A DNA stretch of 44,479 nt. Origin: Hydrurus foetidus (taxonomy: Eukaryota). The stretch covers positions 1 through 44,479 of the forward strand of contig UYFQ01000679.1 of assembly GCA_900617105.1 (NCBI GenBank), given 5' to 3'. Under the pieces are notes generated by a model. That model saw only the letters and a program-made list of their open reading frames with translations. It was not told the origin of the DNA and made no database searches. Position 1 is the first letter of the stretch; each line of letters opens with the position of its first letter. The position numbers and the translations under genes are program-made. Positions 9,001 to 41,621 of this stretch are shown here, in pieces.

Positions 9001-9700
9001 TTATGATGCGTGATCCTCGTTCAGTTGCACCATGACGCAGTCCTCGATAAAAACTATATCTGGCATTTCGTTTTTCACCAGGGACTGTTGGGAATGGGTC
9101 ATATAGATTGAGAGGGACAGATTGAAGTCATAAAAGACAAATGTTGTCGTGCTAACAGATTGTGATGTTAAGATAAATGACGAATTGAAGCGAGAATAAA
9201 CTTGTGATCACCTCAATTGCATCATCTACTGTGCCAGGCTGACAGAAGAAGTTTCGTATGCCAAGATCATAGCCTTGCTTAATGAATGAAAGCGTCACAC
9301 CAGGTGGAGTTATCAAGTTCATCCCAACTTGTGACATTGGTACCGATGGATTTAGAGTTGACAAGCGATCAACGAATGTTGCCATACTGTCAACCGTCAG
9401 CAAACCCTCAATTTCGGGCAATCTTTTGTTGAATGGAATACAGTTTTTCTTGTGAGAAACCATGCAACGCAAGACCTTATTACCAAATTTGCTACGATCT
9501 TCCGTCGCCCCGATGATGATGAAGACAGATAAGTCGAAATAATTCATTAGCTTCTCGGTTTTAAAAGTGACTCCACCGCTCTGGAAGTTGTGGGGAGGTT
9601 TCAACGCCTGACGGAGAGGAAATTTAGAACTCGTGAGACGGAAACCTCCGACCATCCCAAGAATTAAGACGCAAGTGAAGAAGAGAGATTTCAAGGACAT
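9001..9700 (-). CDS. CoA-binding domain protein (YccU/CoA_binding_2-like), predicted plastid-targeted; 2 exons (9700-9212, 9084-9001)
   Basis: Family motifs IIGATEDRSKFGNKVLR, ITPPGVT, LGIRNFFCQPG. Exon 2, read manually as SLVKNEMPDIVFIEDCVMVQL..., supplies the typical C-terminal DCxxV. N-terminus is a hydrophobic signal ending VGG-F followed by an S/K/R-rich stretch. Confidence 0.85.
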
Positions 9701-10113
9701 GATGGATCAATTGATCTTAACAACAAATCCGAAACGCAACTTTTCACCACACTGGCAGAGGCGTAACTGTGACGAAATCTAGTGACGCCAACATAGAGCT
9801 ATTCAGCATTGAACGAGTCGAAGAGAGCTGTGTTTTCTGAACTCCGAACCTCCTCATGAATCGATTGACAACGATCTGCAACATCGTTCATCGTTCAAGC
9901 TTTTTCATTTATTTTCAAGTTTTACATGAAATTTTCATGCCACCCATCTGATTTTACGAAATGACGCGACACTATAAACTAGATACTCATCTGTTGAAGA
10001 TGTCAATTCAAAATGTCACATGACGAGGAATTTCAGTTAAGGCGGTCAGTGTGGATTGCGTTCACGAACATCGACAGTGCGTGACGATTCTCGTGTGACT
10101 AGAAATAGTTGGG

Positions 10114-11589
10114 ATGTTGTTGCTCTGCTTTTGCATCATACCTATTGTATTCTCCGCGGCAAGGGACATACCTATCGGGATTAATAGTGTCGACCAAACG
10201 TAAGTCGTCAAAATATTCTCTCTACCTCACTTCTTCAATAGTAGACTCATCGCGCGACCAATGAACATCTTCATAGGTCACAGGATGGCGAACAACCTGC
10301 GAAAAGCAATCATAAGTTGCGAGGCAGAAAAGGTGACGAATCGAAACCTTCAACATCACTCTTCTCTCCAACTACCGATGGTTCGGCAATTCAAAATTGG
10401 CAAAATTTAATAAATCGCAGAGGTGCAAGTGAGCAGCGAGGATTTGACACCAATAAGATTCATTGGTGCGGGATCATTTGGATGCACATTTAAGCCTTCC
10501 ATACCTTGCCTAACAGAGCGAGCAAATTTCTCTGGACCTGGTTATTTGAGCAAAGTAGTCAACATCGAGAAATATTCTAACGATGCTGAAGTTAGAATTG
10601 GAGAAATGATCACACGTATCCCAGATTTTGAGTCGTACTTCGCTCCAATACTGCAAGTATGCGTTATGGACTCGTCTTTCCTATTACCGGATGTGATAGA
10701 GCAGTGCTCAATGATGGCCGCCTCCACTGACCTCTCCATCTTCGTATCCAATTTGATGCGGTATGTTGGCACAGATTCTCTTAGGATGTATCTCTATGAA
10801 CAAACCACAAAAAGTGAAACACTCGGAATACAGGCTACTTTCAAAACGCACTATCACCTCTTACGAGCATTGACAAGTTTACAAACCCTCTCGAATCCAA
10901 TAGTGCATTTCGATCTAAAAGAGAACAATGTGCTTCTTGATGATACTACCGGTTCTCCTATCGTAATAGATTTTGGATTCTCTTTCACAAAAGAAAAGTT
11001 AATGCTGACAACACGGGATAAAAATGTGTTGAACGAATTGTTCTGGTCATACGATGGAGTGGCTAGTGGGCAAGCAAATGACTGGTGTCTTGAAGTGGAT
11101 CTGTTGAGCTACATTTCACAGATTCCTTTTAAACATCACAATGTTGAGTATAGTTCAATCATTGGTGGAACAGATATCCGTGAATTGGAAAATACCGTAG
11201 ACAGTTATATCACGAAAATGGAATTTACAAATTCTGGAATATTTCCTCCGGAAGAAGTGGAGACCTTTAGGGATGCACATAAGAAAAACTTGGGTCGATT
11301 CCTAAATTATACTTGGGGTCAATTAATAGAATACTTAATTTCTACGTGGAGTTCGTGGGACAATTTTTCTCTTTCATTGATTTACTGTACGTTTTTTGGA
11401 CGTAAACAAAGAGTGCATAATCGGTTAAATATCTTCGGTGACAGTGAATTAAATTGGATTGTCACACCGCAGACAAATCCGCTAATGTTGAAATATACGG
11501 ATATGATTACAAAAACCGTTTTGGCTCATCCAGGAAATATACAAGATCCGATTAAAACGATGAAAAATTTGGTCGCACTTTTGGTATGA
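10114..11589 (+). CDS. Protein kinase-like enzyme with N-terminal signal peptide; 3 exons (10114-10199, 10277-10332, 10421-11589)
   Basis: Kinase motifs GAGSFG, SKV lysine, alphaC Glu (AEVRIG), HFDLKENN, IDFG. The long ORF has no ATG start (GTG just after an in-frame TAA), but two phase-compatible GT-AG introns join it to MLLLCFCIIPIVFSAARDIPIG...NHKLRGRKEVQ. Confidence 0.8.
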
Positions 11590-12140: not shown

Positions 12141-15100
12141 TCATATTTTCGAAACTACGTATGCATACCAGTACGTAACAAAAAAATCTTGGAAATAACG
12201 ATGTACAAGATAGCACAGCAATGTCAAAAAAAATACGGCGAAAAATTTAGCTATAGTTGGTAGTGTTTCAAACCAGTTATTAACACCATCCCTGACTAGA
12301 TCAAAATGACCATCTTTTATGCCGTAGTAGAAAAAAGGAAGCCAAAATGTTAGCATTATCCTCTGAAACAAATACATTGCGTATGACGTATATCCCAGTG
12401 TTGTTATCGGCAAACTTTCTAAAAAAAATCGGGAATAATTGTATCGAGCTGAACCAGTCTGTAACATACTAACAAGAATTAAAATTAAAAATGCAAACGG
12501 TACAATAACAAACCATAACACAAATTTAATTTCTTCTTTATTTAAATCACCTAAAGTGCTCATTAGAAAGCCAATTCCTATCGCAGTAAAATCTGGAAAA
12601 AATCGCCAAATGTAGCAGCACAGAGTAAAAAAAGTGGAATCCCTTTGGGGGTGATTGTCCGTTTCATCTCCGGATAAGGAAGGACCCCTGGACCCGTTAC
12701 TGGAATTATCTAGGGACTCGGACATTTTTCTGGAGGTACCTCTTAGGGGTGAATATGTCGCTAAAATAGGGCTATTATGCTCGATATTTACCATTTCTGA
12801 TATTGATGCGGAGGGGTAGAAGTAGGAGAGAAGCCAATTACGATGTACCCACGGCCAAACAGGCTTAGTATCGGTGTGATTGTACACTCTATAGGCGAAG
12901 TCAATTACACCGATTGCCCTCAACCCCTCCATCTCCCCATCGTGACTCCTGCCCCAGTGCCAGAATGCGAAGTGTACGTTCTCTAGTACGCACGCGGCTA
13001 TTGCACCAGCAACGAAATAAGCGATAAACGTAAATGCGTTCTGTAAGGTGTAAAGTGAAATATTTTCAATATTTTCATTACTATTATTATTGGTGACTTT
13101 TCAATAAGACATGAGAAGTTGAGTACGTGAGAAGATATGTAGATGAGTGAGTAAACAATATGCGTGCAGTAAATTGAATTGTGTGTAATACAGAATGACA
13201 GAGATATTGATCTATTCTGCGATTCGTAATTTTTATGTCGACTGAAGAAAAAATTTTAGATTCATCGATAATGATGAAAACATAATGTGCTTGAGAACAC
13301 TAGAAATGGATGAAAATGAGAAAAATTTAACAGTTGTAGACAAGAAGGGGACATTGTTGATGTGAACATGTAGAGGTTAAAATGTGTGGTGACAAAAAGA
13401 AGAGAAACGGATGCGAATGAGAAAAAAATCATGAATCGAATATGAAGAAAAGAAAGAAAGAAAGAAAAAAGATCTCACCTTGGCAAATGTGTTGTATAAC
13501 ATAAACGTGAAGAGACCCAAAACAACCAAAATCCAAAAAGATACCATGACCAGCATAGTGCTCATATCAGTCCTATTATAGGCCAAAAGTACCGCTTTAT
13601 CCCCTACCCACTGTTTCCAAGTGCGACTTCTTCGTATTCTTCTAGGGGGTCTAAGAGTGAGCGGGGAAAGTTCTTCTGACGCATACGTCATTAAACGATT
13701 CTGCAACGTCATCAGAATCATTCTGCCGATACCGTATAAAATAAAGCAGTTAAGTATGATACTGGCGTAGAGGAGATTGTTCGGACCGTATAAGTGGCAG
13801 GTGGGACGATACCAAGACTGCATCCCTATCACGTACAGAACAGAGCACACAGCCTTCTGAGTGTTGTTTACTTTGTCGTCATTTACGTGCACATTGATCC
13901 AAGGAGGAATATTGAGCAGTAAAGCTACCCATAATATCGGATATAACCCGACACATCTCGAGACTATAAAAGATCGAATGTTAAATGATTTGCGGGGTAA
14001 AAGTTTTAGGCCGGCCGGACCGGTACCCCCCTTTACTGACACACTAAACCACTCCGCCCTCCCGACAGTCGGACTAGTTGAAGTGAACAACCCCTGAGAG
14101 TCTTCGGTGATTGAACTTTTTCTCACTCTGCCTATAACAGCCTCTCTTTCGTTTCTTTCGTTTCTGGGTGAGTCCATTGCACTGTTGTGATCATTGTGAC
14201 TGTGATTATTACTATTATTATTCTGGTTGTTGTGAGTGTTTTGTGTGTCATCGTTTAGTATGGGATTCAGTTGAATTTCACACACGTCATCCGGCTCAAC
14301 ATGTACGAATTGAGCAGTCTCTCTCAACTGTAAAGCTGTCGTAAACCCAGATATCATCACGAACAAGTACGTATCAGCGCTGAATGAAGATGATATCGCA
14401 TTGTGTGGGTTGTGAAAATGGTCATATAGAACTAAGAACGTAAAGATTCCTCTGACGCCTTCTATCAGCGCTCTATTAGTGGCGAGTAAATCTTCAAAGG
14501 AATTCTCTAATTTCTGCAAATCACCGGCCCCTTTAAACATCTCCCCTCCCTCTTCTTCCCCCTCCCCCATTACCTCGCAATCATAGGCTGTAGACTCATT
14601 TGTATTTGGTATTGAATTCTGATTCTCATTTTGATTTTCTATTTCACCGTATTTCCCTAGAAACGGTTTTGAAGATCCGCTTTCTAAGTCGAATTGAGAA
14701 TCTTGCGCATCTATTCTATCAGTGATACCTATTGAATGTGGAATGTTGACATTAATGTAAGATATATTAAGTCATATATTGAGGAGAATACTGTATTTGG
14801 AAGATGGAATACACTTACATAGATACATATATACTTACATACATACTTATCATGTTAGAACACACATAAATTCACACCCAAGCACACCCACACATGTATA
14901 TATAATCAATAATATACGCGCACATAATATACACATACATACATACACACACACAAATACATACATGCACATACCCAGATTTATCAAAGCCTCAGGTTTC
15001 TCTTTCTCTAAACGAATTAATAAGGACTCTGAAAAAGACCGGATAGTTACTCCCGGTGCATAGATTTTAGCCGGTTCTAGCCGTATTCCACCGAGAGAAT

Positions 15101-18100
15101 CAGATAGATATTTAATAAACATTACAGCCCCTAAAGAGTCCACACCAATTGAAGCGAAAGAGGAGTTAGTGGACGGCCTTCTTCCTCTCAACTCTTCTAT
15201 CATGTCACACACATGTCTCATCATTATCGTCACAGCTTTTGTATTTTTTAATTTACTTTTATTCATATTACGTACGGATCTTGGATCTGTAGATTCCGAA
15301 CTCTTCAAACGGACGTATCCTGGACCTTCTTCTACTTTTGTTTTTGATTGGGTATTAGGATAGGAAGATAAAGTTGTATGCTCATCCACATCGATTTTCA
15401 AGTGCATTCTTTCCCTTTCCTCCTCCTCCTCTTTTTCTCCTTCTTCCTCTTCTTCATTCAATACGTTGTTTCCATCTAGTACTTCACTATTTAAATCCGA
15501 AGTAGCATCTAATTCGCCCACACAGAGATCGCTTACGGTAGGATCCGGTAGAGCTTTACGGTCTAGTTTGCCGTTAGCCGTTTCAGGAAACACACTTATT
15601 TGCACAATGCTCCTACAAAAAGAATATTAGATGCAAATAAAATTTATGTTTGACGATCTGCTATTTGCGTTATTTTGAAATTGTCAAAATAGTGACTCAC
15701 TGCATCACGATACCGGATAATAATATTCGGCCAAATTTAACCGGATGAAGCATTAAAAATACCAAAACTGCTCACGGAGAATAATCATCAAAATAAGATA
15801 ATTGATGTAAAATATGATTTTCAGGAGCAACTTCAACTTCAAGTTGAAGCTGTACGTACTTGGGCATCATGTAGTACGTCAGTGATCTTCCCGCGTGGAT
15901 TTGGATTTCTTTTATTTGAGCTTTTGAAAGTGTAACACTTGTAACTCCTTTTATGTACAATGCTAACTTTCCGTCTTTGACAACAGCCACTTATATAAAC
16001 AATAAAAAGTGGAAAAATTAATGGTTGAAGAAAAGAGCTGTAAAAGTCTGATAGAGAAATTCAAAAATTGATATTCCGTTCGTAGATATTACATACATTG
16101 CATGTATAGAAAATCACTGCGATAAAATGCAATACATGGAGTGGGATGTGTCACGTATCCGCAGTCACTGTGGTGATGCTCAATATGAGGATGAGCTTTA
16201 GATAGATATCTGACGCACTGAAAGATACGTAATTGAAATCTCATCTTTCTTCACCTGTGCAGTACGTACTGTGGGTTGTGCGTATTAGTTATATATGATA
16301 AAACAGTGTATACTCTACAGAGAGCCGTGAAAAATAAAATATTACAAATGTAAATGAATATTTTAAGTACACGATTATAAGGTAGAAACGGTGTTTTTCT
16401 CCGCGACCAAATAAAAATTTCAATTTGGAAATAATAAATCATCTTTTCTGTCCCTAGAGTAAGTTACCTGTTTTTTCTACAAGATTATGAGAACTAAATA
16501 CGGTTTCTATTTCCGCTAATTCAATTCGAAAACCGTCAATTTTAACTTGGTCGTCCATTCTTCTCACGAAAATATATTTCCCTTGTCCTCCCTAGTCATC
16601 CAAATACACAGGGGCAAAGTGAACACTCAAATAGATGCGATGAAGGATGCAATAAGACTTCGTCAAATTTTGTGTGTGTCATAAATATGACTTTCACACT
16701 GCGCACTATGTGATGGAGGCCAAATGAACTAAACTAAACTAAACTAAACTAAACTAAATACATTCACAATTCAATAAAAGAAAATAAATCAGGAAACACA
16801 CATGGAGAAATTAATAATATTCAAAACCCCTTGACAATAATTTTGAAATTACTGGCACCTCTAATCTGGTAACAATATCTCCTGTGCGATAGACGGAACC
16901 TGGACCGAACGGATTCCTGAAGAATTTCTGACGAAATAAATCATATTCATAAATCGTAATATATCAGATAATAGGAGGAGAGACATTGCGTTTGAAGTGT
17001 GACTTCTCAAAAAGCGTTATAGACGATAAAATAGCAATGTTTCATTTGATGTAGTGAATGATTGACATATACAAAGCAATACAAAATAAAACAATAAAAT
17101 TATAATAATCTACTTTTCAGTGAATAGTGAAGAATTACAAAAAGTGAGATACGTACTTCTTTTGTGAGTTCAGGTGCATTTAGATAGCCTTTTGCCACTC
17201 CTACTCCTCCTATCCACAGTTCTCCTTCTTTATCAGGAGGCATTATTGTTTTTGGTAATATTTCGTCCTCAGATACGATGTAGAAAACCGTCTAAAATTA
17301 ATTAAATTAGAATTTAGTATTCTTCATATAGTTAGTTGTATGCATTATTTAAGTTTGTATTTTACATGAGTCATATAAATACATTGTACGTTACACATTC
17401 TCAAATATGTTTTGGCCTTATACCCTACTGCCCATTACATTGAAGACTTACAAAGCGCAACACTGAAACCAATAAAAGGAATATCCAACACATACTTTAT
17501 TTCATCACATCAATAACAATCGTAGTCATACAACAAAATATGAAATACTGCAAATCATAAACGATACCAGTAACAAAAAACATAATATAAAAGCAATCAC
17601 AATAAACAATAACATATAACACAGCAATACAAACGCACCTACCTCACTGATTGGCATTCCAATCGGTATGAGCGGTACTCCATTGCTGTATTGCAGTGTT
17701 GACACGTCTTTAGGAAGAGTGTAAGAACTCGACCAAATAGTGGTCTCAGTAGGACCATCTAGAATAAATCATAAATGTAATAAATCCGTTAAAAGGTGTG
17801 CTTTCATTTAAAATTTCCGTATTTTGTATTTGCATCTTTTACTCCACAATATAACATATCAAACTATTTGAAAACAGTTTCATTTTTCAACAACTCAAGC
17901 CAACAATCCCGTATACAATTAGTCCTTCATTATTCTGTACATGTCACGAAATGCCACTGATTATCTAATTTAATATAAACACATGTTTCACGTTTTTCTC
18001 TTTTCCCTGGATTCTTAAAAGTTGCACCATGTATTGCGCATTTAGTAAGAAAAAAATAAAAAATAAAAAGAATGCAAAGTAGTACTTACATACGTTACGA

Positions 18101-19689
18101 AGACTTCTGCTTGATTTTGCCAGTGGTAAAATACTAGCTCTGAACGCTTCGCCACCCACCTATAAAAGACGTACCGTAAAATGAAAATAATATAGGTGAA
18201 CAGTAATTTGCTTAAAAATAGTGAGCGAAAAATAAAGAAATATTGCGATATTGAAAATGAATGCAAAAGCTTTAATCCATTATGCAGCCAGACAATGAGT
18301 GTTTTAAAGATAAGAAATAGTTTGAAATTAGTCTGTGTAACATTTCGTCAATATAATGTATAGTGGAATAGAATACATAGAAAAAAAAGGAATTATTAGA
18401 AAAGAAAAAATGTATAATTGTGTTTTTATGATAAGAAAGGCAATGCTAAGATTACCAGAAAATCGATAGATGTGTCTCCCGTCCATCCCGTAGCGAAGAG
18501 CATCTATGTCGCGAAGAGCAGGATTACACGCATTGGATCAGCTTTTGTAAAATGCATATGTGCGTTCTTACTTTTATTATATACACGATTTTTTTGATGT
18601 CAACTCGTTATTTTTGCTATGAGAACCTCATTTATATTTAACAACTTCAACACACCTCAAAAGTAGTTGGTGTAGCTTGTATAACTGTGACTGCACAATC
18701 TCTGACAACATCAAGGAGATGAAAAGGGTCTTTCTGTGAACTCTGATTCACCATGACCAGAGATGCTCCGCGAAATAAAGGTAGAAACATCTCGAGAACA
18801 CTGTAAGTACAATGAAGTACGTATTAGGATTAGGATTCATTGTAATACAGTTAAGCACGTATTATGCAGTCATTGTAAGTAGAGGCATATCAATAGTTTG
18901 AGTTAGACTTACAGTACATTTGAGGAATAGAGTGCGAGTAATAGTTGATAAATGACAGCACTTTCTATACCTTATATCAAAACAGAATGTTGTCAGTCCA
19001 AGTACCCTGCTATTGCTGTCTAGATTAAGCTCGTCAGCGAACCAGTTTACAATATTCACTACTCCTGCCTGCTTGAGCATGACTCCTTTTGGTTTCCCAG
19101 TAGACCCCGAAGTGTAAAGAACGTAAGCAAGTCCGCCATCTTCTCGGTTAGAAACTTTTTCACGAGCGATAGACAAAATGGCAACTTTATTCAAATTGTT
19201 GAATGCAGGCAGGTGCAGAGTTCTCTTCACAATAGTACTAACTGTAATATCTGCATCTACCAGAGGTATGGCGGAATTTATAACGAGAGTGGGAGGCACT
19301 ATCACGCCAAGAGAGAGCGCGAGTTCAAGGCTCTCTTCGTCAGTTATCAACATTTTACATTTTGAGTGAGCAAAAATGTGAGTTTGCCTGTCCGGAGGGA
19401 ATGCTGGATCAACTGGTACATAAGCTGCTCCTGCCTTTAATATGCCTAGAATAGCCGACACGAGGCCGATTCCTCGTGTCATCATCACTGCTACAAGAGG
19501 CGTTTCAGAATCATCCTCGTTTATAGCAGCACTCTCCACGGCGCATGCTAACTCCTTGCCAATGCATGTTGCGATCTCGTCTACTTGCTGATAGCTGTAT
19601 GTCCTCCCATCTTCCAAACAGACACATGTTGATTGACCACTTTTGGCGACGGCACCTTCGAAGATATCGATTAGGCTTACCCCTTGCAT
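12141..19689 (-). CDS. NRPS-like protein: adenylation + peptidyl carrier + membrane acyltransferase-3 domain; 12 exons, ~1,450 aa
   Basis: Phase-consistent exons approx. 19689-18971, 18800-18656, 18503-18456, 18159-18090, 17758-17643, 17291-17157, 16927-16859, 16591-16468, 15989-15860, 15612-14975, 14728-13479, 13040-12141. A-domain cores: LKAGAAYVPVDP, YTSGSTGKPKG, FDISV, GGE, NVYGPTE, GELWIGGVGVAKGYL, YRTGD, RMDDQVKIDGFRIEL, YMMP, NGKLDR. Carrier motif GVDSL. AT3 motifs: IEGVRG(x)9H, FVMISGF, FIVSRCVGLYP, LGYTSYAMYLFQ, with many TM-like segments. Confidence 0.9.
16727..16758. repeat. (AAACT)n pentanucleotide microsatellite (intronic)
   Basis: About 6 tandem aacta units. Confidence 0.85.
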
Positions 19690-23112: not shown

Positions 23113-24030
23113 TGAAAAAGAAAACTGGGAACAGTATTGAATATTGAAATATGCATCTAAAAATCTTGAAAAGCAGTTTTTGTCATGGTTTCGTCAATTG
23201 CCAACACACCATTCTGACCCGACAATTTCTTTTCATCGATTATTCTAATAGGGAAATCAAATTGTTTACCGATCGGAGAATGGAGATTCAGATTTGGCTC
23301 AAATTTTATCACTGTTATCAAACTGTGATAATAGATTAATAAACGCGGCATTTACGATGGATGACCCGGCTAAAGAACACAGAATATTTCACTCTGGTGT
23401 GATTCTCCGAAAAGACAAATGAAGTCACTGCATATCCATATCCATACCGGATAAGAATGATTAAAACCATTTATCTAGCATTCGGTTTGATAAGATGAGC
23501 GACTTCTTGCGATCCATTTACCGTTCTGTACTACATACTATTTACAGTAACGTAGAGACCGGTTTATTTATAATCATCTGTTCATTTATTTAAAATAAAA
23601 TCATCAGAGGCAGTCCGGCTAGATCCATAGTAAATTTTTCTCAATTATACCGATCACTCTGGAATAGATTGCCTGCCCAACTATTTGAGATTTTTTAGAA
23701 TATTTTAGGTATACTGCCAAATAGCTGAATAAACTTTCAGCATTTTTCTGAATATATTTCAGATCGAGTGATGATAATCAGCCCCCCACACCTTTAAAAA
23801 AAAGTAGCAAAATCCACACCATCAGCATCATGGCTTGGGGCAATTGATTTATCATCAGTTCATCTAATTTTTTCGGAGAAAAGTGGGCACTTTATTCTAC
23901 TACAGTACATGATAATAATTAGTGCTAGTATGGAATTCACTTTTTTCAAACCACCGGTGAAGATCGTTTCGTGTCATAAAAGTCACCCGATTATGACGAT
24001 TATGAACAAACCGGTCTCCACGTTACTGTA

Positions 24031-24816
24031 CCAGTGCCGGTAATAACGCGGTTTCGGTAAAAATGCGGTTATTCGACCCGGCAGCCGGCAGGTCCGATAT
24101 CTCTCCAAACTCTTCATGAAAAAGTTTTTGTCAAATATTCTGAGAGGTAATTCGATAGTTTTACATCCGTTTCGATTATTAAAATTTTCTAAAATTGATG
24201 ATTTCATCACGAGATCGACATTAGTCACTTTTGGCGACTCATCAATGTCGGATATAGATGAAGCAAGAGTATGAGTTAGGTATTCTATCTTGTAGGCAGC
24301 AGCCATATTAGTATGGATCCGCGAGGATTTCGTACAAATCACGATAGTCACTGAGATGCATCAGTTTCAGAGACCAAAAATGTGCCTTTTTAACGTATTC
24401 GGGATGCGGTTTCCCAATATTTCAACGAAAAAGGCACATTTTTGGTCTCTGAAACTGATGCATCTCAGTGACTATCGTGATTTGTACGAAATCCTCGCGG
24501 ATCCGATTTGTACGAAATCCTCGCGGATCCATACTAATATGGCTGCTGCCTACAAGATAGAATACCTAACTCATACTCTTGCTTCATCTATATCCGACAT
24601 TGATGAGTCGCCAAAAGTGACTAATGTCGATCTCGTGATGAAATCATCAATTTTAGAAAATTTTAATAATCGAAACGGATGTAAAACTATCGAATTACCT
24701 CTCAGAATATTTGACAAAAACTTTTTCATGAAGAGTTTGGAGAGATATCGGACCTGCCGGCTGCCGGGTCGAATAACCGCATTTTTACCGAAACCGCGTT
24801 ATATTACCGGCACTGG
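24031..24816. mobile_element. Foldback/MITE-like long palindrome
   Basis: Arms 24031-24391 and 24428-24816 are near-perfect reverse complements around a 36-bp spacer. Ends are CCAGTG...CACTGG, flanked on both sides by TGTA (24027-24030, 24817-24820). Confidence 0.7.
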
Positions 24817-25085
24817 TGTACGGTATGGCGGGGTACGGTGAACGGTGATACCGTTCAGTAAGGACAAAAATTGGCGATGAAAAGCTTTCACGGTTTTACA
24901 CAGAGGTGATATCCAAACTCTCTCTCTCTCACCCTCCCTCCTCTACACACACAGCACCTGTGGCACGGCGCGCGCTGCATCTTCTGAAGAACGCATTGTC
25001 CTTCCAGCGGCGAACAAATTTCATTTCAAAGTTGCGCTGAAAAAAATACTGATTTAAAAGAAATCAGCGTTTTCAAAAGGTTTGA

Positions 25086-34314: not shown

Positions 34315-34941
34315 TAGATCCACAAGATGGTATACCCTGCTTGCTGAGTCAGGAATTGGGAATCTGAGTCCGGAGTCTTGAGTCCAGAGTCTAGGATCGT
34401 TGCGGGACATCAGCTATGTGATCTTCCTGGGGCGAAGAGCTGTGGAAAAATGGTTCAAGAAAGAAAGGATTTGAGTATCGTTTACATGTTCTGTGTTGGA
34501 GCTACTGCACAGGAGCCTTGGAAAAGTTGTAGTCCAGTAGGAGGTAGAAAAGAACGACGAGAGTGAGCAATGGTAGTAGCTTTGGTTACAGCGGCAGGAA
34601 CTAGGGCTAAATTCTACGTTAATTAGTTGAGTAGCGATTGCAACGTTGGCCGGAGACTTGAGACCTTGTAGAATGATATCATCTGTCCAATATCTTGCTG
34701 ACTATTACCACTGCGCCCCCGCCGCTGTCAACCGGCACCATAACTGGTCTGTCCACCATAACGCACTAATAAGATACAGACAGTACACTCATTGGATAAA
34801 TTGTTTGGAGAAGTGAAATGACTGTCCCCTTATTTTGGTTTTGGTAGGAAACCAGATACAGACGTGTAATTGGTCGATAATTTGTACTCTGTATTTTGTT
34901 CCAAAGATGATGTACGATGTACGTATAGAACAGGGTGACAC

Positions 34942-35306
34942 TGTCGGAATAACTAATGAGCTAAGTAACCGTATAAGTTATTACGTATGTACATTTGATG
35001 ACGTTTCGTACGTCGTGTGCTGTGTGGTGGTCGCTACTCCACCGGTCCAGGTTCCTTTAACCCAGGAACATCAAAATGATGAAAGTGCACCATGTTTGAC
35101 TGTGCGGGACAGCGCGATCTTTTCGCCTGTCTCCATGAACGATGTAAGCGATGTTGCATCGTTAGTTACCTTAATACTCACACCAGCAGAGCTTTCGCCT
35201 TGAGCCCGGGAAAGTTGCTAGCGCACGTGTTGAACCTGCAGAAGGAGCGCGTACCCAGGAAGGATATAGTCTTCCATTCAGTGGAAACTGATCCTTAGTT
35301 ACGACA
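34942..35306 (+). repeat. 5' LTR (365 bp)
   Basis: Direct repeat of 40936-41299 with TG...CA ends. Confidence 0.97.
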
Positions 35307-35343
35307 TAATTAACGAGTTGCTTTCGTTGCAACCAGTTGCAAC

Positions 35344-36453
35344 ATGAAAGGCAGAGGCCGAGGCCGAGAACACAATACCGCAGGCGGTCGAGCAAACCCT
35401 GCCAACGGTGGCAGAGGGAATGCTGGCCGCGGTGCGAAGCCTCCACCAAGAACAGGAACGGTAGCCGCGATTGGCGCATTCCTGGATCTTGGAAGAGAGA
35501 TGAACCATGGTAGCGTAAGCGCATGGATGAGGAAGTTCCGCGAGTACACTCGCGCGAACTACAAGTCCGATATCTCTGAGATATTCGGCAACGAGGGCAT
35601 ACCGGGTGATTACCCGCAATATGTCGCTCCAGCGGACATAGCAGCCGATGCGAACTTTATGGTATCAACAAAATGGAAGCGAGCATTGGAGCTATACGAC
35701 AGAAACGTCCTTACTCTGAGAGAGGACCGAAAGCAAGTCTTCGGACTAATGCTAGGTCAAATTAGCGAAGCGTCGAAAGCGACAATTCGAGAAGCTGAAA
35801 CCGGACTTGCAGCGATGACTGCAGAGGACCCGCTGCTACTGTTGAGAGCCATCATATTGACTCACCTATCGGATCCGAGGCTGGGAGCAGATCAGAACCT
35901 GCTGAGAGTCCGAATGGCGTATGAGACAGTCAAAATGGAGCAGAACGATGTGCTAAAGTACTACTATCAACGCTTTAAAGCGTTGAAATCTGGATACGAG
36001 GACACGATGCGGGCGTTAGGAGTCATGCCCGAGTTCAACGAGGCCATGACCGCCCACAACGAAGTACTCACTGGGATGAAATTTATGAACGGATTGAACT
36101 CCGGATACCGTCATTACGTGGAGTACTACGAGCACAGGCTCAAAGACTGGCCAGACACCCTCGAGGACGCGTACCTCGAGATGGCCAAGGTCACCCCGAA
36201 GAAGTCAGCAGCAGCAACACCACCCAACCAGACCAATGTTTTCGCTACGAAAACGGCTGGCGGTGAGAAACCAGCTGGGACAGAGAAAGGGAAAGCTAAT
36301 GGGAACGGGGGCAGAGGGAAGGGTGGGCGTACGTCGTACGGCACCCGTCCCGGCAACTGTAATAAATGCGGTGAACTTGGGCACTACTCATACGAGTGTA
36401 CAGCGGAAAGCCAAGCGGGTGCACCAGCACCCAGTGGAAAATCGGTAAACTAA
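35344..36453 (+). CDS. gag: Copia Gag with CCHC zinc knuckle
   Basis: 369-aa ORF with RGG-rich N-terminus and CNKCGELGHYSYEC knuckle. Confidence 0.92.
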   Translation: MKGRGRGREHNTAGGRANPANGGRGNAGRGAKPPPRTGTVAAIGAFLDLGREMNHGSVSAWMRKFREYTRANYKSDISEIFGNEGIPGDYPQYVAPADIAADANFMVSTKWKRALELYDRNVLTLREDRKQVFGLMLGQISEASKATIREAETGLAAMTAEDPLLLLRAIILTHLSDPRLGADQNLLRVRMAYETVKMEQNDVLKYYYQRFKALKSGYEDTMRALGVMPEFNEAMTAHNEVLTGMKFMNGLNSGYRHYVEYYEHRLKDWPDTLEDAYLEMAKVTPKKSAAATPPNQTNVFATKTAGGEKPAGTEKGKANGNGGRGKGGRTSYGTRPGNCNKCGELGHYSYECTAESQAGAPAPSGKSVN

Positions 36454-36636
36454 GTAAGATACATTATTCTCCACCCGTACACTCACCCACACCTACACCT
36501 GTACATACACCCGCACTTACATTTACACACACACCCATACACACCGATCCTCCATGTTTGGCTGATTCCACTAGCGGAATTGAAACATGTGATCATATTG
36601 TTTTTAGTGCCAATACATGCAATATATATAACATGA

Positions 36637-39600
36637 TTAGAAGTAGACACATGTGCTGGTGAGTCGGTTTTCAACGACTCATCCCTGCTGTATAATGTCG
36701 AACACGCACCCACACCTATGATTGTTAGCGGGGTGAATCCGAAAGGAAAACCGCTGATAATCAAGAAACGTGGGGTGTCGGCGTTCGGCAACGTGTATTA
36801 TAGCCCTGACTGTGCTGGTAATATATTGTCTTTTGGTAATGCTGTACGTGACTGTACTGATGTTAAGTACTTACATGACTATGATTGTTACATAGTGCAA
36901 GACGTCAGTGGAAAATATTTTTATAGATTCTCACGAGATGAGACTATGAATATATACCAATGTAATCTTGACACTATGGTAACAGAATGCATGCCAATGT
37001 TAGTTACGACAGTAGAGCAGAATAAGAAGAAGTATACAGTAAGAGAAGTCAGAGACGCGTCGTTAGCTAGAGACTATCAGCGTAGACTAGGATACGCTAG
37101 CGCAGCACAGACTATTAAGTTGATATCCCAAGGGAATTTGACTAATAGCAAAGTGACTGCGCGAGACGTACATAGAGCCATTGATATATGGGGACCGGAC
37201 GTGGGATCCCTTAAGGGGAAGACCACCAGTCACCAGGCCAAGTTAGAAGAGAAGCTACCACTGATAGGTATTGAGTACAAGACAGAACAGATTATGTATG
37301 TAGATATAATGTTTGTCAACCAAGTACCATATCTAGTATCAGTAGTGCAGCCCATCGAGTTCCTATACGTTAGCAAGTTAGCTAACCGAGAGCACAAGAG
37401 CATATGGAACAGCCTAAAGACTTCATTAGCAAGCATGGTAAAGTACAGATTCAGAGTTAAGATGATCCGAGTAGACGGCGAGGGTGCAATCAATACAGAA
37501 TGGTTTCACAACAAAGTCGGCTTAAGAGGTATAGTACTAGACGTTACCGGAGCCGGAGAAGCCGTAGCCGTAGTCGAGCGTAAGATACGACACATAAAGG
37601 AGAGAGTAAGATCAGTAGTCAATTCTCTACCGTTCTCATTGAATGAGAAATTAGAAGTGTGGTTAGTTAAGTATGCAGTCAGTAGAATTGTATTAGCACC
37701 CACACGTAACTCACTTAATCACATCAGTCCACGAGAGAAATTAACTGGAAGAAAGTTAGACGTAGATAAGGAGATTAAACATGGTTTTGGTGATTATGTC
37801 CAAGTGCATAATGATGTCATTGATAACTCTACCAAACCAAGAACAGCCGGGGCCATAGCACTTATGAGCTCCGGTAATCTAGAAGGTTCATGGTACTACA
37901 TGCTGTTAGCTAACGAACGTATTGTTAAACGTACTAAAGCGACTGTACTACCTATGCCTGATGAAGTGATATTACACTTGAATGTATTAGCTTCAAAGAG
38001 AAAAACTGCCAATGTTAAACAGCCTGTATTTGAGAATAGTAGTCACATTGTATTCGATGATGATGACGATGTTGAAGATGATAGTGCTTACATTGGTGAT
38101 GTTGAATATGAAACTGTCGATGAAAATGCTAACGCAGATTACACCGATGAGATTATTGAAGATAACGATCACAATGATAACGAAACACATCTTGAATCAC
38201 AACTCGATATGTCTGATGAAAATCACCCACCCACATTAGATGAGTATGTAGATGACACACTATATGTGAGTGACACTACATACGACAATGACGAACTATA
38301 TTATGATGACACACATGATGACACACATGTACCCCAACCTAAATATGATCAAGCACTGATAGATGACATATTTGGCATAAGTGATGATGAAGATGACTTT
38401 GCTGATGTAACTGTACACACTGAAGTATTCACACCACCTGCCACCATAATTGAAACCGCATATGACCCACCCGTTGTAAACTCACCCGTGTTACGTAGAA
38501 GTGGTAGAAATCACCAACTTGGTAAATGGGATAAGAAATATGTTGGTAATCTGTTCTACAACCACACTCACCTGTACAAAATGACTGTTAATGAGGGAAT
38601 TAATAAGTTAGGGGTGATAGCTGTTGATTCCATTACATCTGAATTGAAACAAATGTGTGATAAGAATGTTTGGGAAGGTGTAACTTACGAATCCCTCACC
38701 CCACAACAAAAACGCACCATTATACCTAGTAGCATGTTCTTGAAAGAAAAGTATACTGCTGATGGTATGTTTGAAAAACTGAAATCTAGACTAGTAGCCG
38801 GTGGGCACTTACAAGATAGAGATGTTTATAACAATGGCGCCTCACCTACTGCTAGCACATCTAGTGTATTCATGCTGACTGCAATTGCTGCTAGACAGAA
38901 GCGTGCTGTCGCCACTGTTGACTTTCCCGGTGCATTCCTGAATAGTGATATGCCGCTGACCGGCGACCATGTTGTATACATGCGTCTGAATAAACAACTG
39001 ACTGCTGCACTAATTAAGATTGATGCAACATATAACAAATACATGAATAACAATGGAACATGTATTGTTAAACTTAAGAAAGCTTTATATGGATGCGTTG
39101 AATCTGCTAAACTATGGTATGATAAACTATCCAGTGATTTGATCAAATTCAATTATACTGCTAATGAATATGACATATGCGTATTCAACCGAACTGAATC
39201 GGATAACACACAAACATCACTCGTAATTCATGTTGATGATATGATAATCACTGCTTCAAATGAATCTCGCGTTGATGATGTTATAAAACAAATTGAAACT
39301 ATATATCCCGGTCTAACGAAACATAGAGGAAAAGTTTTAAATTACATAGGCATGACTTTCGACTTCAGCAAGGAAGGCTGCGTTAAGATGACTATGGAGG
39401 GCTTCGTGCAAGACCTCATTGAGGGGTGTAAGGATATGCCGGGCACGGCAAACACACCTGCACGAGCCAATCTATTCACTATACCTGATGAATCTGACTC
39501 ACCCTTACCTGATAATCTGCGTGAGCGTTTTCACTCTATTACAGCGAAGCTACTCTACCTGAGTAAGAGGACGAGGCCAGACATTCTGACTGCCGTAGCG

Positions 39601-40301
39601 TTCCTGACAAAGAGAGTGCTGAGGCCCCAAAGGGACGACTACGACAAGCTGACCCGTACGATACAGTACATACGGGGTAGTCAGCATACGGGTATAACAT
39701 TTGAAGTATATGAACCTATTCATGTTATTGCATATATCGATGCATCCTTTGCCATACATCCCGATATGAAAAGTCACACAGGCAGCGTAATCACCCTTGG
39801 GAAGGGAGCGATCTACGCCAAGAGCGGTACTCAGCGCCTGATGACAAAGTCCAGCACGGAGGCCGAGCTAGTCGCACTCAGCGACGCTGCCAACCAAGTT
39901 CTGTGGACCAGGAACTTCCTGGAGTGCCAGGGACACCCTCAACCTCCCGCCTTAGTGTATCAAGACAATCAGTCTACGATACAGCTCATACGTAACGGTC
40001 GCTCGAACAGCGAACGTACGCGGCACGTTGATATACGGTATTTTTCCTGCACGACAGAATCAGTACAGGCGATGTAGACATTGTGTACCTACCTACTACT
40101 GACATGATTGCAGACATTCTAACCAAGCCACTGCAGGGTGAATTGTTCAAGAAGCTCAGGAAGGAGCTGCTCAACACTTCACCACCTACCCTCACGTACG
40201 CAGATGGATGCAAGACTGAGGACCGTACGGACTCCGCGCCGACACCCGTACGCACCAAATTCAACCCACGATTTCCATACCCTACGTCCAAGAAGAACTA
40301 A
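36637..40301 (+). CDS. pol: Copia Pol (protease, integrase, reverse transcriptase, RNase H) with apparent 1-bp frameshifts
   Basis: Protease VDTCAGES (upstream of the listed ATG). Integrase DDE: YVDIMF, RVDGEG, VVERKIR. RT: KSRLVAGG, DFPGAFLN, KALYG, HVDD. RNase H: YIDAS, STEAEL, QDNQ, and ADILTKPL in a shifted frame after about 40045. Confidence 0.92.
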
Positions 40302-40517: not shown

Positions 40518-40935
40518 TCCATCATTTTCTTCTACCCCATCAAGTGCGACTCAAGAAAACCCTGACAGAGACATAAAGAGCGAGGACCGTGGAGACCCGA
40601 CCCAGACCCAAGACCCGATTCCGGAATCAGATAGTATAACAAGTCAGAAAATTATTTTAAGTGTAATCTTTTGCGTGTTACATAAAGTCTTTTTAGAATT
40701 GTTTAACTCTATGCTCATTCGGATCAGTCAGACCTTATGATACTAATATTACCCTGCATGCAATAAATTATCTAACGTCACAATTAAGGTCAACCCCACC
40801 ATTACCCTACTTCCCTACAATATAAAATCATGTTATGATACACCATTTGTGAAGCTTCAAGTAAACGGAGCATTTTTGAATTCTATTGCGTTTTCATTCG
40901 CGTACACCAACCCGACGACTCACGCCATAGGGGTG

Positions 40936-41299
40936 TGTCGGAATAACTAATGAGCTAAGTAACCGTATAAGTTATTACGTATGTACATTTGATGACGTTT
41001 CGTACGTCGTGTGCTGTGTGGTGGTCGCTACTCCACCGGTCCAGGTTCCTTTAACCCAGGAACATCAAAATGATGAAAGTGCACCATGTTTGACTGTGCG
41101 GGACAGCGCGATCTTTTCGCCTGTCTCCATGAACGATGTAAGCGATGTTGCATCGTTAATTACCTTAATACTCACACCAGCAGAGCTTTCGCCTTGAGCC
41201 CGGGAAAGTTGCTAGCGCACGTGTTGAACCTGCAGAAGGAGCGCGTACCCAGGAAGGATATAGTTTCCATTCAGTGGAAACTGATCCTTAGTTACGACA
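40936..41299 (+). repeat. 3' LTR (364 bp)
   Basis: Differs from the 5' LTR by one substitution and one 1-bp indel, as read by eye. Confidence 0.97.
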
Positions 41300-41621
41300 G
41301 ACACATCATCACGCACGCATCATGCATCGTGCACGTACCACGTACACACACGTCACTCAACTCTCATTGTCTGATAATATTATCAACAAGCACTGTTACT
41401 GGCAATTCGAATTGGGCATCCATAATCCATATGGTAGTTTTGATGCATTCACCCAGTTAAGTAATGAATCCTGACCAGCAGATGCAACTTCGTCCAATCG
41501 GTTATTTCTGCAGTATGGTAGCTGAATCAGCACTTTAAAAAAAAAGTCGAATTCCCCTCATCCGTCACTGCGACAGCTGGGTGTAAATTACAAACTCTCT
41601 GAAACGTCTGGACTCGTCAGA

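Follow-up and report, generated by a model that had tools for sequence, protein, structure and literature searches.

A gene of Hydrurus foetidus for a predicted single-chain A-T-AT3-like protein with a glycine-type adenylation pocket

D-alanylation of teichoic acid involves DltA, DltC and DltB, which are separate proteins and act together with DltD. AlmG, the membrane transferase of a second system, is a lipid A late acyltransferase-type enzyme and not an AT3 protein. Among nonribosomal peptide synthetase (NRPS)-like enzymes, single-module forms include A-T-R and A-T-TE proteins, Ebony and epsilon-poly-L-lysine synthetase (A, adenylation; T, carrier; R, reductase; TE, thioesterase; C, condensation domain). 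With AlmE and AlmF, AlmG glycylates lipid A of Vibrio cholerae in three steps (PMC4278540; this and the other papers are cited from excerpts), and DltB is an MBOAT (PMC9558356). Known AT3 members of PF01757 (OafB, OatA, Oac and WecH) use acyl-coenzyme A (acyl-CoA) and stand alone or are fused to SGNH or racemase domains (PMC9833829, PMC9558356). The DNA analysed here (the window) is a stretch of 44,479 nucleotides (nt) from Hydrurus foetidus (GenBank assembly GCA_900617105.1, contig UYFQ01000679.1), which carries on its minus strand a gene for an A-T-AT3-like protein. As judged from its domains, this protein may be a single-chain enzyme that glycylates a glycan or glycolipid of the surface or secretory pathway (probability about 0.55).

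As in AlmE/AlmF/AlmG, a glycine ligase, a phosphopantetheine carrier and a membrane transferase would act in series, but the three separate bacterial proteins are replaced by one eukaryotic chain with an NRPS glycine-type pocket. As in Dlt, an amino acid would be activated, carried and moved across the membrane to a surface polymer, whereas Dlt has D-Ala, an MBOAT transferase and separate proteins. No Pfam or NCBIfam match to an MBOAT (DltB) or AlmG-type transferase was found in scans of the window and the family of relatives. By analogy, the protein likely works like the Dlt and Alm systems while being a member of neither. With PF01757 members it shares R-X10-H, SGF and SXXXY motifs in a multi-pass membrane domain; unlike in those members, this domain comes after A-T, and RXXG replaces RXXR. 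The pocket is identical to those of DhbF module 1 and ClbJ A1 at 9/10 positions, and family members share ~40–45% domain identity with bacterial glycine A domains (DhbF, ClbJ, AB3403). Unlike the latter, the protein has no condensation domain, is encoded by a gene with introns and has a membrane C-terminus. It starts with A-T followed by one terminal domain, like the single-module NRPS-like enzymes, but the terminal domain is AT3-like, and R, TE and C were not detected.

Gene structure, transcription and relatives

The gene was modelled as follows (RNA joints, splice joints seen in RNA reads).

12141..19689, minus strand: whole gene for the A-T-AT3-like protein, 12 exons, 1447 amino acids (aa)
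18971..19689, minus strand: exon 1, start codon, N-terminal part of the A domain with the A3 loop, D235 and I236
18656..18800, minus strand: exon 2, pocket L239 and Q278; RNA joints
18456..18503, minus strand: exon 3, 48 nt, pocket L299; RNA joints
18090..18159, minus strand: exon 4, pocket G301 and V322; RNA joints
17643..17758, minus strand: exon 5, pocket I330 and W331; RNA joints
17157..17291, minus strand: exon 6, A6 region; RNA joints
16859..16927, minus strand: exon 7, A7 region; RNA joints
16468..16591, minus strand: exon 8, A8 hinge region; RNA joints
15860..15989, minus strand: exon 9, small A subdomain; RNA joints
14975..15612, minus strand: exon 10, catalytic K517 (15567–15569), acidic linker and T domain
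15027..15212, minus strand: carrier (T/PCP) domain, motif GVDSL, serine codon 15135–15137
13479..14728, minus strand: exon 11, N-terminal half of the AT3-like membrane domain
14418–14453 and 13947–13958, minus strand: exon 11 motifs R-X10-H and R-x-x-G, respectively; also an SGF motif
12141..13040, minus strand: exon 12, C-terminal half of the AT3-like domain, SXXXY at 12372–12386, stop codon

The model includes 11 GT-AG introns of 152–478 nt and 4344 coding nt with no internal stops. GC content is 0.26–0.34 in the introns versus 0.35–0.50 in the exons. Exon 1 matched Pfam AMP-binding (E 3e-33), and the A-domain exons cover an intron-free homologue, P0002, without gaps at 33–68% identity. RNA evidence was obtained from two poly-A runs of one sample, which carries the species label of the best-matching DNA run, with ~6/100 of each run read. 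Coverage of the exons was oriented as a minus-strand transcript, and the RNA joints at introns 1–9 (9/11) matched the model exactly, with 2–20 reads per joint and run. Introns 10 and 11 gave no joint row, because rows adjoining repeats are dropped. RNA depth was 0 over 13064–13427 and ~0 over 14793–14974, inside introns 11 and 10, respectively, and intron-free relatives read straight through both the exon 10/11 and the exon 11/12 junctions. The gene is expressed and spliced, which marks the window as eukaryotic. A pseudogene or mis-read exons were ruled out by the open frames and the spliced minus-strand RNA.

A search with exon 11 gave seven longer relatives. A profile of T plus the membrane domain, run on 50% clusters, found 2071 proteins at E<=0.001, 418 at 1e-10 and 122 at 1e-30. 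The set analysed (n=157) consists of 150 matches listed, minus P0283, plus eight from other searches; P0283, a 6027-aa protein, was dropped as it matched only the A subdomain. In 15/157 members, one open reading frame (ORF) runs from the A domain to transmembrane helix (TMH) 9. T and TMH1 share an ORF in 81 of the 107 members having TMH1; in 25 of the other 26, fewer than 140 residues precede TMH1, and the remaining one (P0007) has a T-like motif. Species names found among 27 members looked up were Epipyxis sp. PR26KG and Chlorochromonas (Ochromonas) danica, both Chrysophyceae; a third is a EukProt entry.

Glycine pocket and origin of the A domain

The first-pass annotation of this DNA had read the pocket by hand as DILQLGVIWK and predicted glycine. 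All six motifs that it used lie on the minus strand where it had placed them, from D235 (18976–18978) to K517 (15567–15569). Taken column by column, the exon rows again read DILQLGVIWK. The columns were placed on P0002 by GrsA numbering and were checked only via calibrator domains, in a single alignment comprising 251 A domains. In it, module 1 of Bacillus DhbF (dhb operon) and Escherichia coli ClbJ A1, both glycine-activating A domains, read DILQLGLIWK at these columns. DhbF module 2 and ClbJ A2 gave DFWNVGMVHK and DLYNLSLIWK, respectively, and the latter code stands in the cysteine paragraph of PMC12283262. EntF gave DVWHFSLVWK, one position off the expected D331; hence column 331 can slip in distant domains.

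The difference of one residue from the bacterial code, noted in that annotation, is correct with respect to DhbF module 1 and ClbJ A1 (position 322) but understates the match, as an identical code was present in 14/236 bacterial domains chosen by similarity to P0002. Position 322 is M, L, V or F among the bacterial glycine-type codes; DILQLGMIWK is a glycine code, and glycine codes vary at 299, 322 and 330 (PMC12283262). The window pocket conforms to the glycine-type pattern DILQLG-x-[IV]WK. In PDB searches, the top match of exon 2 alone was DhbF (5u89, E 7e-7), and no A domain was found with exon 5 alone. The family profile ranked 5u89 and AB3403 above TycA and GrsA, and the best single-module PDB matches were DhbF 5u89 and AB3403, the latter with glycine being 4zxi.

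Among the complete family pockets, 22/32 equal that of the window at all nine positions, nine differ slightly and one (P0162) departs clearly. The modal frequency within the family is 0.92 for the code columns versus 0.69 for other A4–A5 columns. Three full-length members have altered pockets, DVSHLAATYK (P0162), DIVQIGGIYK (P0257) and DILQLGAIYK (P0164), and are candidates for other substrates. That the A domain activates glycine is a strong prediction from the pocket residues. Taken alone, the glycine code is ordinary. The glycylation proposed in the first-pass annotation fits the gene, but what supports it is the fusion to T and AT3-like domains, on which that annotation is silent.

P0002 and P0006 passed the TIGR01733 cut-off of 317.4 bits with 339.7 and 341.2 bits, respectively; the core residues D235 and K517 are present in the window exons, and the closest non-family proteins are bacterial NRPSs. 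Pfam and NCBIfam scans of the window and family members revealed no C, TE or R domain. P0002 scored 200–210 bits against DltA models with cut-offs of 476–560. A classical NRPS module and a DltA orthologue were rejected on these grounds.

FastTree trees were rooted on ClbH A2, with relatives representing the full protein of the window; the trees omit five near-copies of P0004, short rows, and fungal and animal A domains. The family formed one clade (support 0.99–1.0) on a long stem (0.39–0.73). With the pocket region included, it was sister to a bacterial glycine-type clade (159/166 glycine-type) with support 0.78–0.90. With that region excluded, support was 0.40 in the tree with 10 members, whereas with 32 members the family joined a mixed group of four domains at 0.78, and identity outside it was 0.407 to glycine-type versus 0.402 to other domains. 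The bacterial NRPS origin suggested earlier is thus plausible from TIGR01733 and the bacterial nearest proteins, but placement with the glycine clade was obtained only with the pocket region; outside it, the sequences weakly support descent from bacterial glycine domains. With this sampling, the trees single out no donor.

Carrier and AT3-like membrane domain

The exon 10 carrier scored 23.5 bits against Pfam PP-binding (cut-off 20.8), and its serine is kept in 84/84 family members. PF01757 was above cut-off in 4/38 members scanned. In the Atlas, residues 690–1215 of P0002 fell to PF01757 clusters at 0.96 (190 shared features), as did exon 11 at 0.91 (157 features).

The motifs of AT3 proteins are R-X10-H, RXXR and SXXXY (PMC9833829). 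R-X10-H (TMH1) is present in exon 11 of the window and is conserved in the family (R 105/107, H 109/110). The SGF-type motif (TMH2) and SXXXY (TMH9) are also present in the window, the latter being kept in the family at S 70/73 and Y 65/69. In RXXR (TMH3), the first arginine is kept in 102/109 members, whereas the second position is Gly in the window and in 104/108; hence, where RXXR was sought, the window has RXXG. The register was defined by RARRIFP of phage Oac versus RCVGLYP of the window. The second arginine of RXXR is Arg74 of OafB, which was modelled on the CoA 3'-phosphate (PMC9833829). Since the phosphopantetheine of a carrier is without the CoA 3'-phosphate, the Arg-to-Gly replacement fits a carrier-bound donor and not acyl-CoA. 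On its motifs, the membrane domain is a divergent AT3 relative, here called AT3-like, and its anatomy points to a carrier-bound aminoacyl donor.

In P0006, a full-length member, Arg replaces the TMH1 His that is conserved elsewhere in the family.

Proposed function, alternatives and implications

In the predicted reaction, the A domain would convert glycine and ATP to Gly-AMP, and glycine would then be held as a Gly-thioester on the phosphopantetheinylated serine of the carrier. The carrier arm may enter the cavity on the cytosolic side, where other AT3 proteins bind acyl-CoA, and the conserved His of R-X10-H may support transfer. Glycine would reach an acceptor at the opposite side of the membrane and, through its free amine, alter the charge of that acceptor. 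The protein begins directly with the A domain, as do its relatives, and the N-terminus of the Oac AT3 protein is cytosolic (PMC9833829); thus, a cytosolic A-T ahead of the membrane domain fits. Since the acceptors of characterised AT3 proteins are for the most part sugars outside the cytoplasm (PMC9558356), the best candidate for the acceptor is a glycan or glycolipid.

Several observations weigh against this reading. AT3 donors are acyl-CoAs rather than acyl carrier protein, and the AT3 family is defined by transfer of non-aminoacyl groups (PMC9558356). Exons 11 and 12 of the window gave no Pfam AT3 match, and the family profile fails to detect Oac, WecH and OpgC. R-X10-H lines up with WecH, in a comparison with only 30% probability; that with OpgC was empty (3%). 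The structure model of P0003 is weak (pLDDT 54.5); it matched HGSNAT (Z 11.1, 305 aligned, root mean square deviation 5.7) and GWT1 (Z 9.6, 306 aligned, 6.0), these Z values of 9.6–11.1 falling in the range common among helical bundles. Hydropathy shows six clear segments across exons 11 and 12, the AT3 fold having ten helices. The joint between the T exon and the AT3 exon is without direct read support. Arg14, which was also modelled on the CoA 3'-phosphate, is conserved, and WecH is without a strict RXXR; hence, the argument from Arg-to-Gly is suggestive only.

If the AT3-like domain served for release, it would offload glycine or diglycine onto a lipid or small molecule to give a glycine-containing metabolite. 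Ansamitocin and a mycolate are examples of non-sugars acylated by AT3 proteins (PMC9558356), AlmG glycylates a lipid (PMC4278540), and the domain scans found no other release domain. This outcome is considered unlikely, given that characterised acceptors are mostly sugars, as cited above, and that no tailoring genes flank the gene in the window. Still less probable is N-acylation, in which the AT3-like domain would still use acyl-CoA and would modify carrier-bound glycine in the manner of a starter condensation domain located in the membrane, yielding N-acylglycine. CmmA, TmaT and OatA have been proven to use acyl-CoA as donor (PMC9558356), and R14, H25 and the first RXXR arginine are kept, but the second arginine is lost in 104/108 members, no thioesterase or reductase for product release was found in the scans, and AT3 catalysis was modelled at the face opposite the carrier (PMC9833829).

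The glycylation mechanism might also operate with another small amino acid (Ala, sarcosine or similar), as specificity codes derived from bacterial domains may be misleading for a eukaryotic lineage with a branch as long as the family stem (0.39–0.73). Some alanine-domain codes accept Ser, aminobutyrate (Abu) or Gly (PMC12283262), and variant family pockets exist, e.g. DVSHLAATYK in P0162. With the code identical in 14 bacterial domains, and DhbF and ClbJ differing only at 322, which is variable among glycine codes, such a substrate is given a slim chance. The reading preferred here is that the protein glycylates a glycan or glycolipid at the surface or in the secretory pathway.

The proposal in the first-pass annotation that the domain gained many introns is plausible for introns 1–8, because intron-free relatives are found on long contigs (intron-poor relatives lie on contigs of 9.9, 20.5 and 37 kb). 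However, introns 9 and 11 appear common to many relatives and look old, since ends of relatives' fragments cluster there (18/157 start near intron 9, and 32/157 end near intron 11). The family sample favours intron-poor genes, intron-rich relatives being under-sampled by construction. In the RNA, ~20 reads per run share only a 38-nt piece of exon 9 (15859–15897), and their flanks have other letters that are A-domain-like by eye; a second expressed paralogue is likely behind these reads. A DNA run diverges near the same exon 9 point with different letters, which suggests that the putative paralogue shares intron 9.

No bacterial or viral A-T-AT3 fusion turned up in genome, viral, plasmid and phage searches. 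AT3 patterns were confirmed in 0 of 120 stretches in genome contigs, and the P0003 search of viral contigs gave 0/1 confirmed. Plasmid records covering 80% of a family protein were 0/272 and 0/2661, and the phage search gave only four weak A-domain matches. Among bacterial A-domain loci, 0/80 (the best 80 of 604 loci) had a family-type AT3 match; the profile used also misses Oac, WecH and OpgC, so that this result speaks only for family-type AT3. No paper on the A-T-AT3 architecture was found in a literature search that had most subscription journals outside its scope. The order may already be listed in databases, as Pfam architectures in an excerpt of PMC9833829 include unspecified eukaryotic AT3 fusions.

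Other features were noted elsewhere in the window. An intron-free 391-aa kinase-like ORF (10414–11589, plus strand) lies ~550 nt beyond the stop of the gene; it has nine relatives on giant-virus metagenome-assembled contigs at 25–28% identity and is possibly viral in origin. Copia-type retrotransposon ORFs (RVT_2) occupy 35314–40301 (plus strand), with near-identical flanks at ~34817–35298 and 40931–41460 that resemble long terminal repeats. Pieces of a GDP-fucose protein O-fucosyltransferase (PF10250; 42707–44215, minus strand) are 23 kb from the gene, with no sign of a cluster. A short CoA_binding_2 ORF (PF13380) is located at 9152–9706 (minus strand). At 23983–24841, a ~520-nt stretch with duplicate ORFs occurs twice in tandem, due to a duplication or an assembly artefact.

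The targets of eukaryotic AT3 proteins are described as unknown in an excerpt of PMC9558356. If the proposed function is true, it would indicate that the AT3 fold can be fed an amino acid by a carrier protein, and assays of a eukaryotic AT3 would gain a defined substrate. One chain would do the job of three proteins in the known bacterial cases. More tentatively, and at somewhat less than even odds, such one-chain enzymes may be widespread in golden algae and glycylate extracellular glycans or glycolipids via NRPS chemistry, with variant pockets delivering other amino acids. In that case, this would be the first aminoacyl-transferring, carrier-fed AT3 and a eukaryotic parallel to the tuning of surface charge by Dlt and Alm, and it might shape scales, loricae, cysts or mucilage. 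The proposed function predicts that common freshwater algae bear a glycine decoration not described so far, and this prediction is directly testable because the named member Ochromonas/Chlorochromonas danica is a cultured species.

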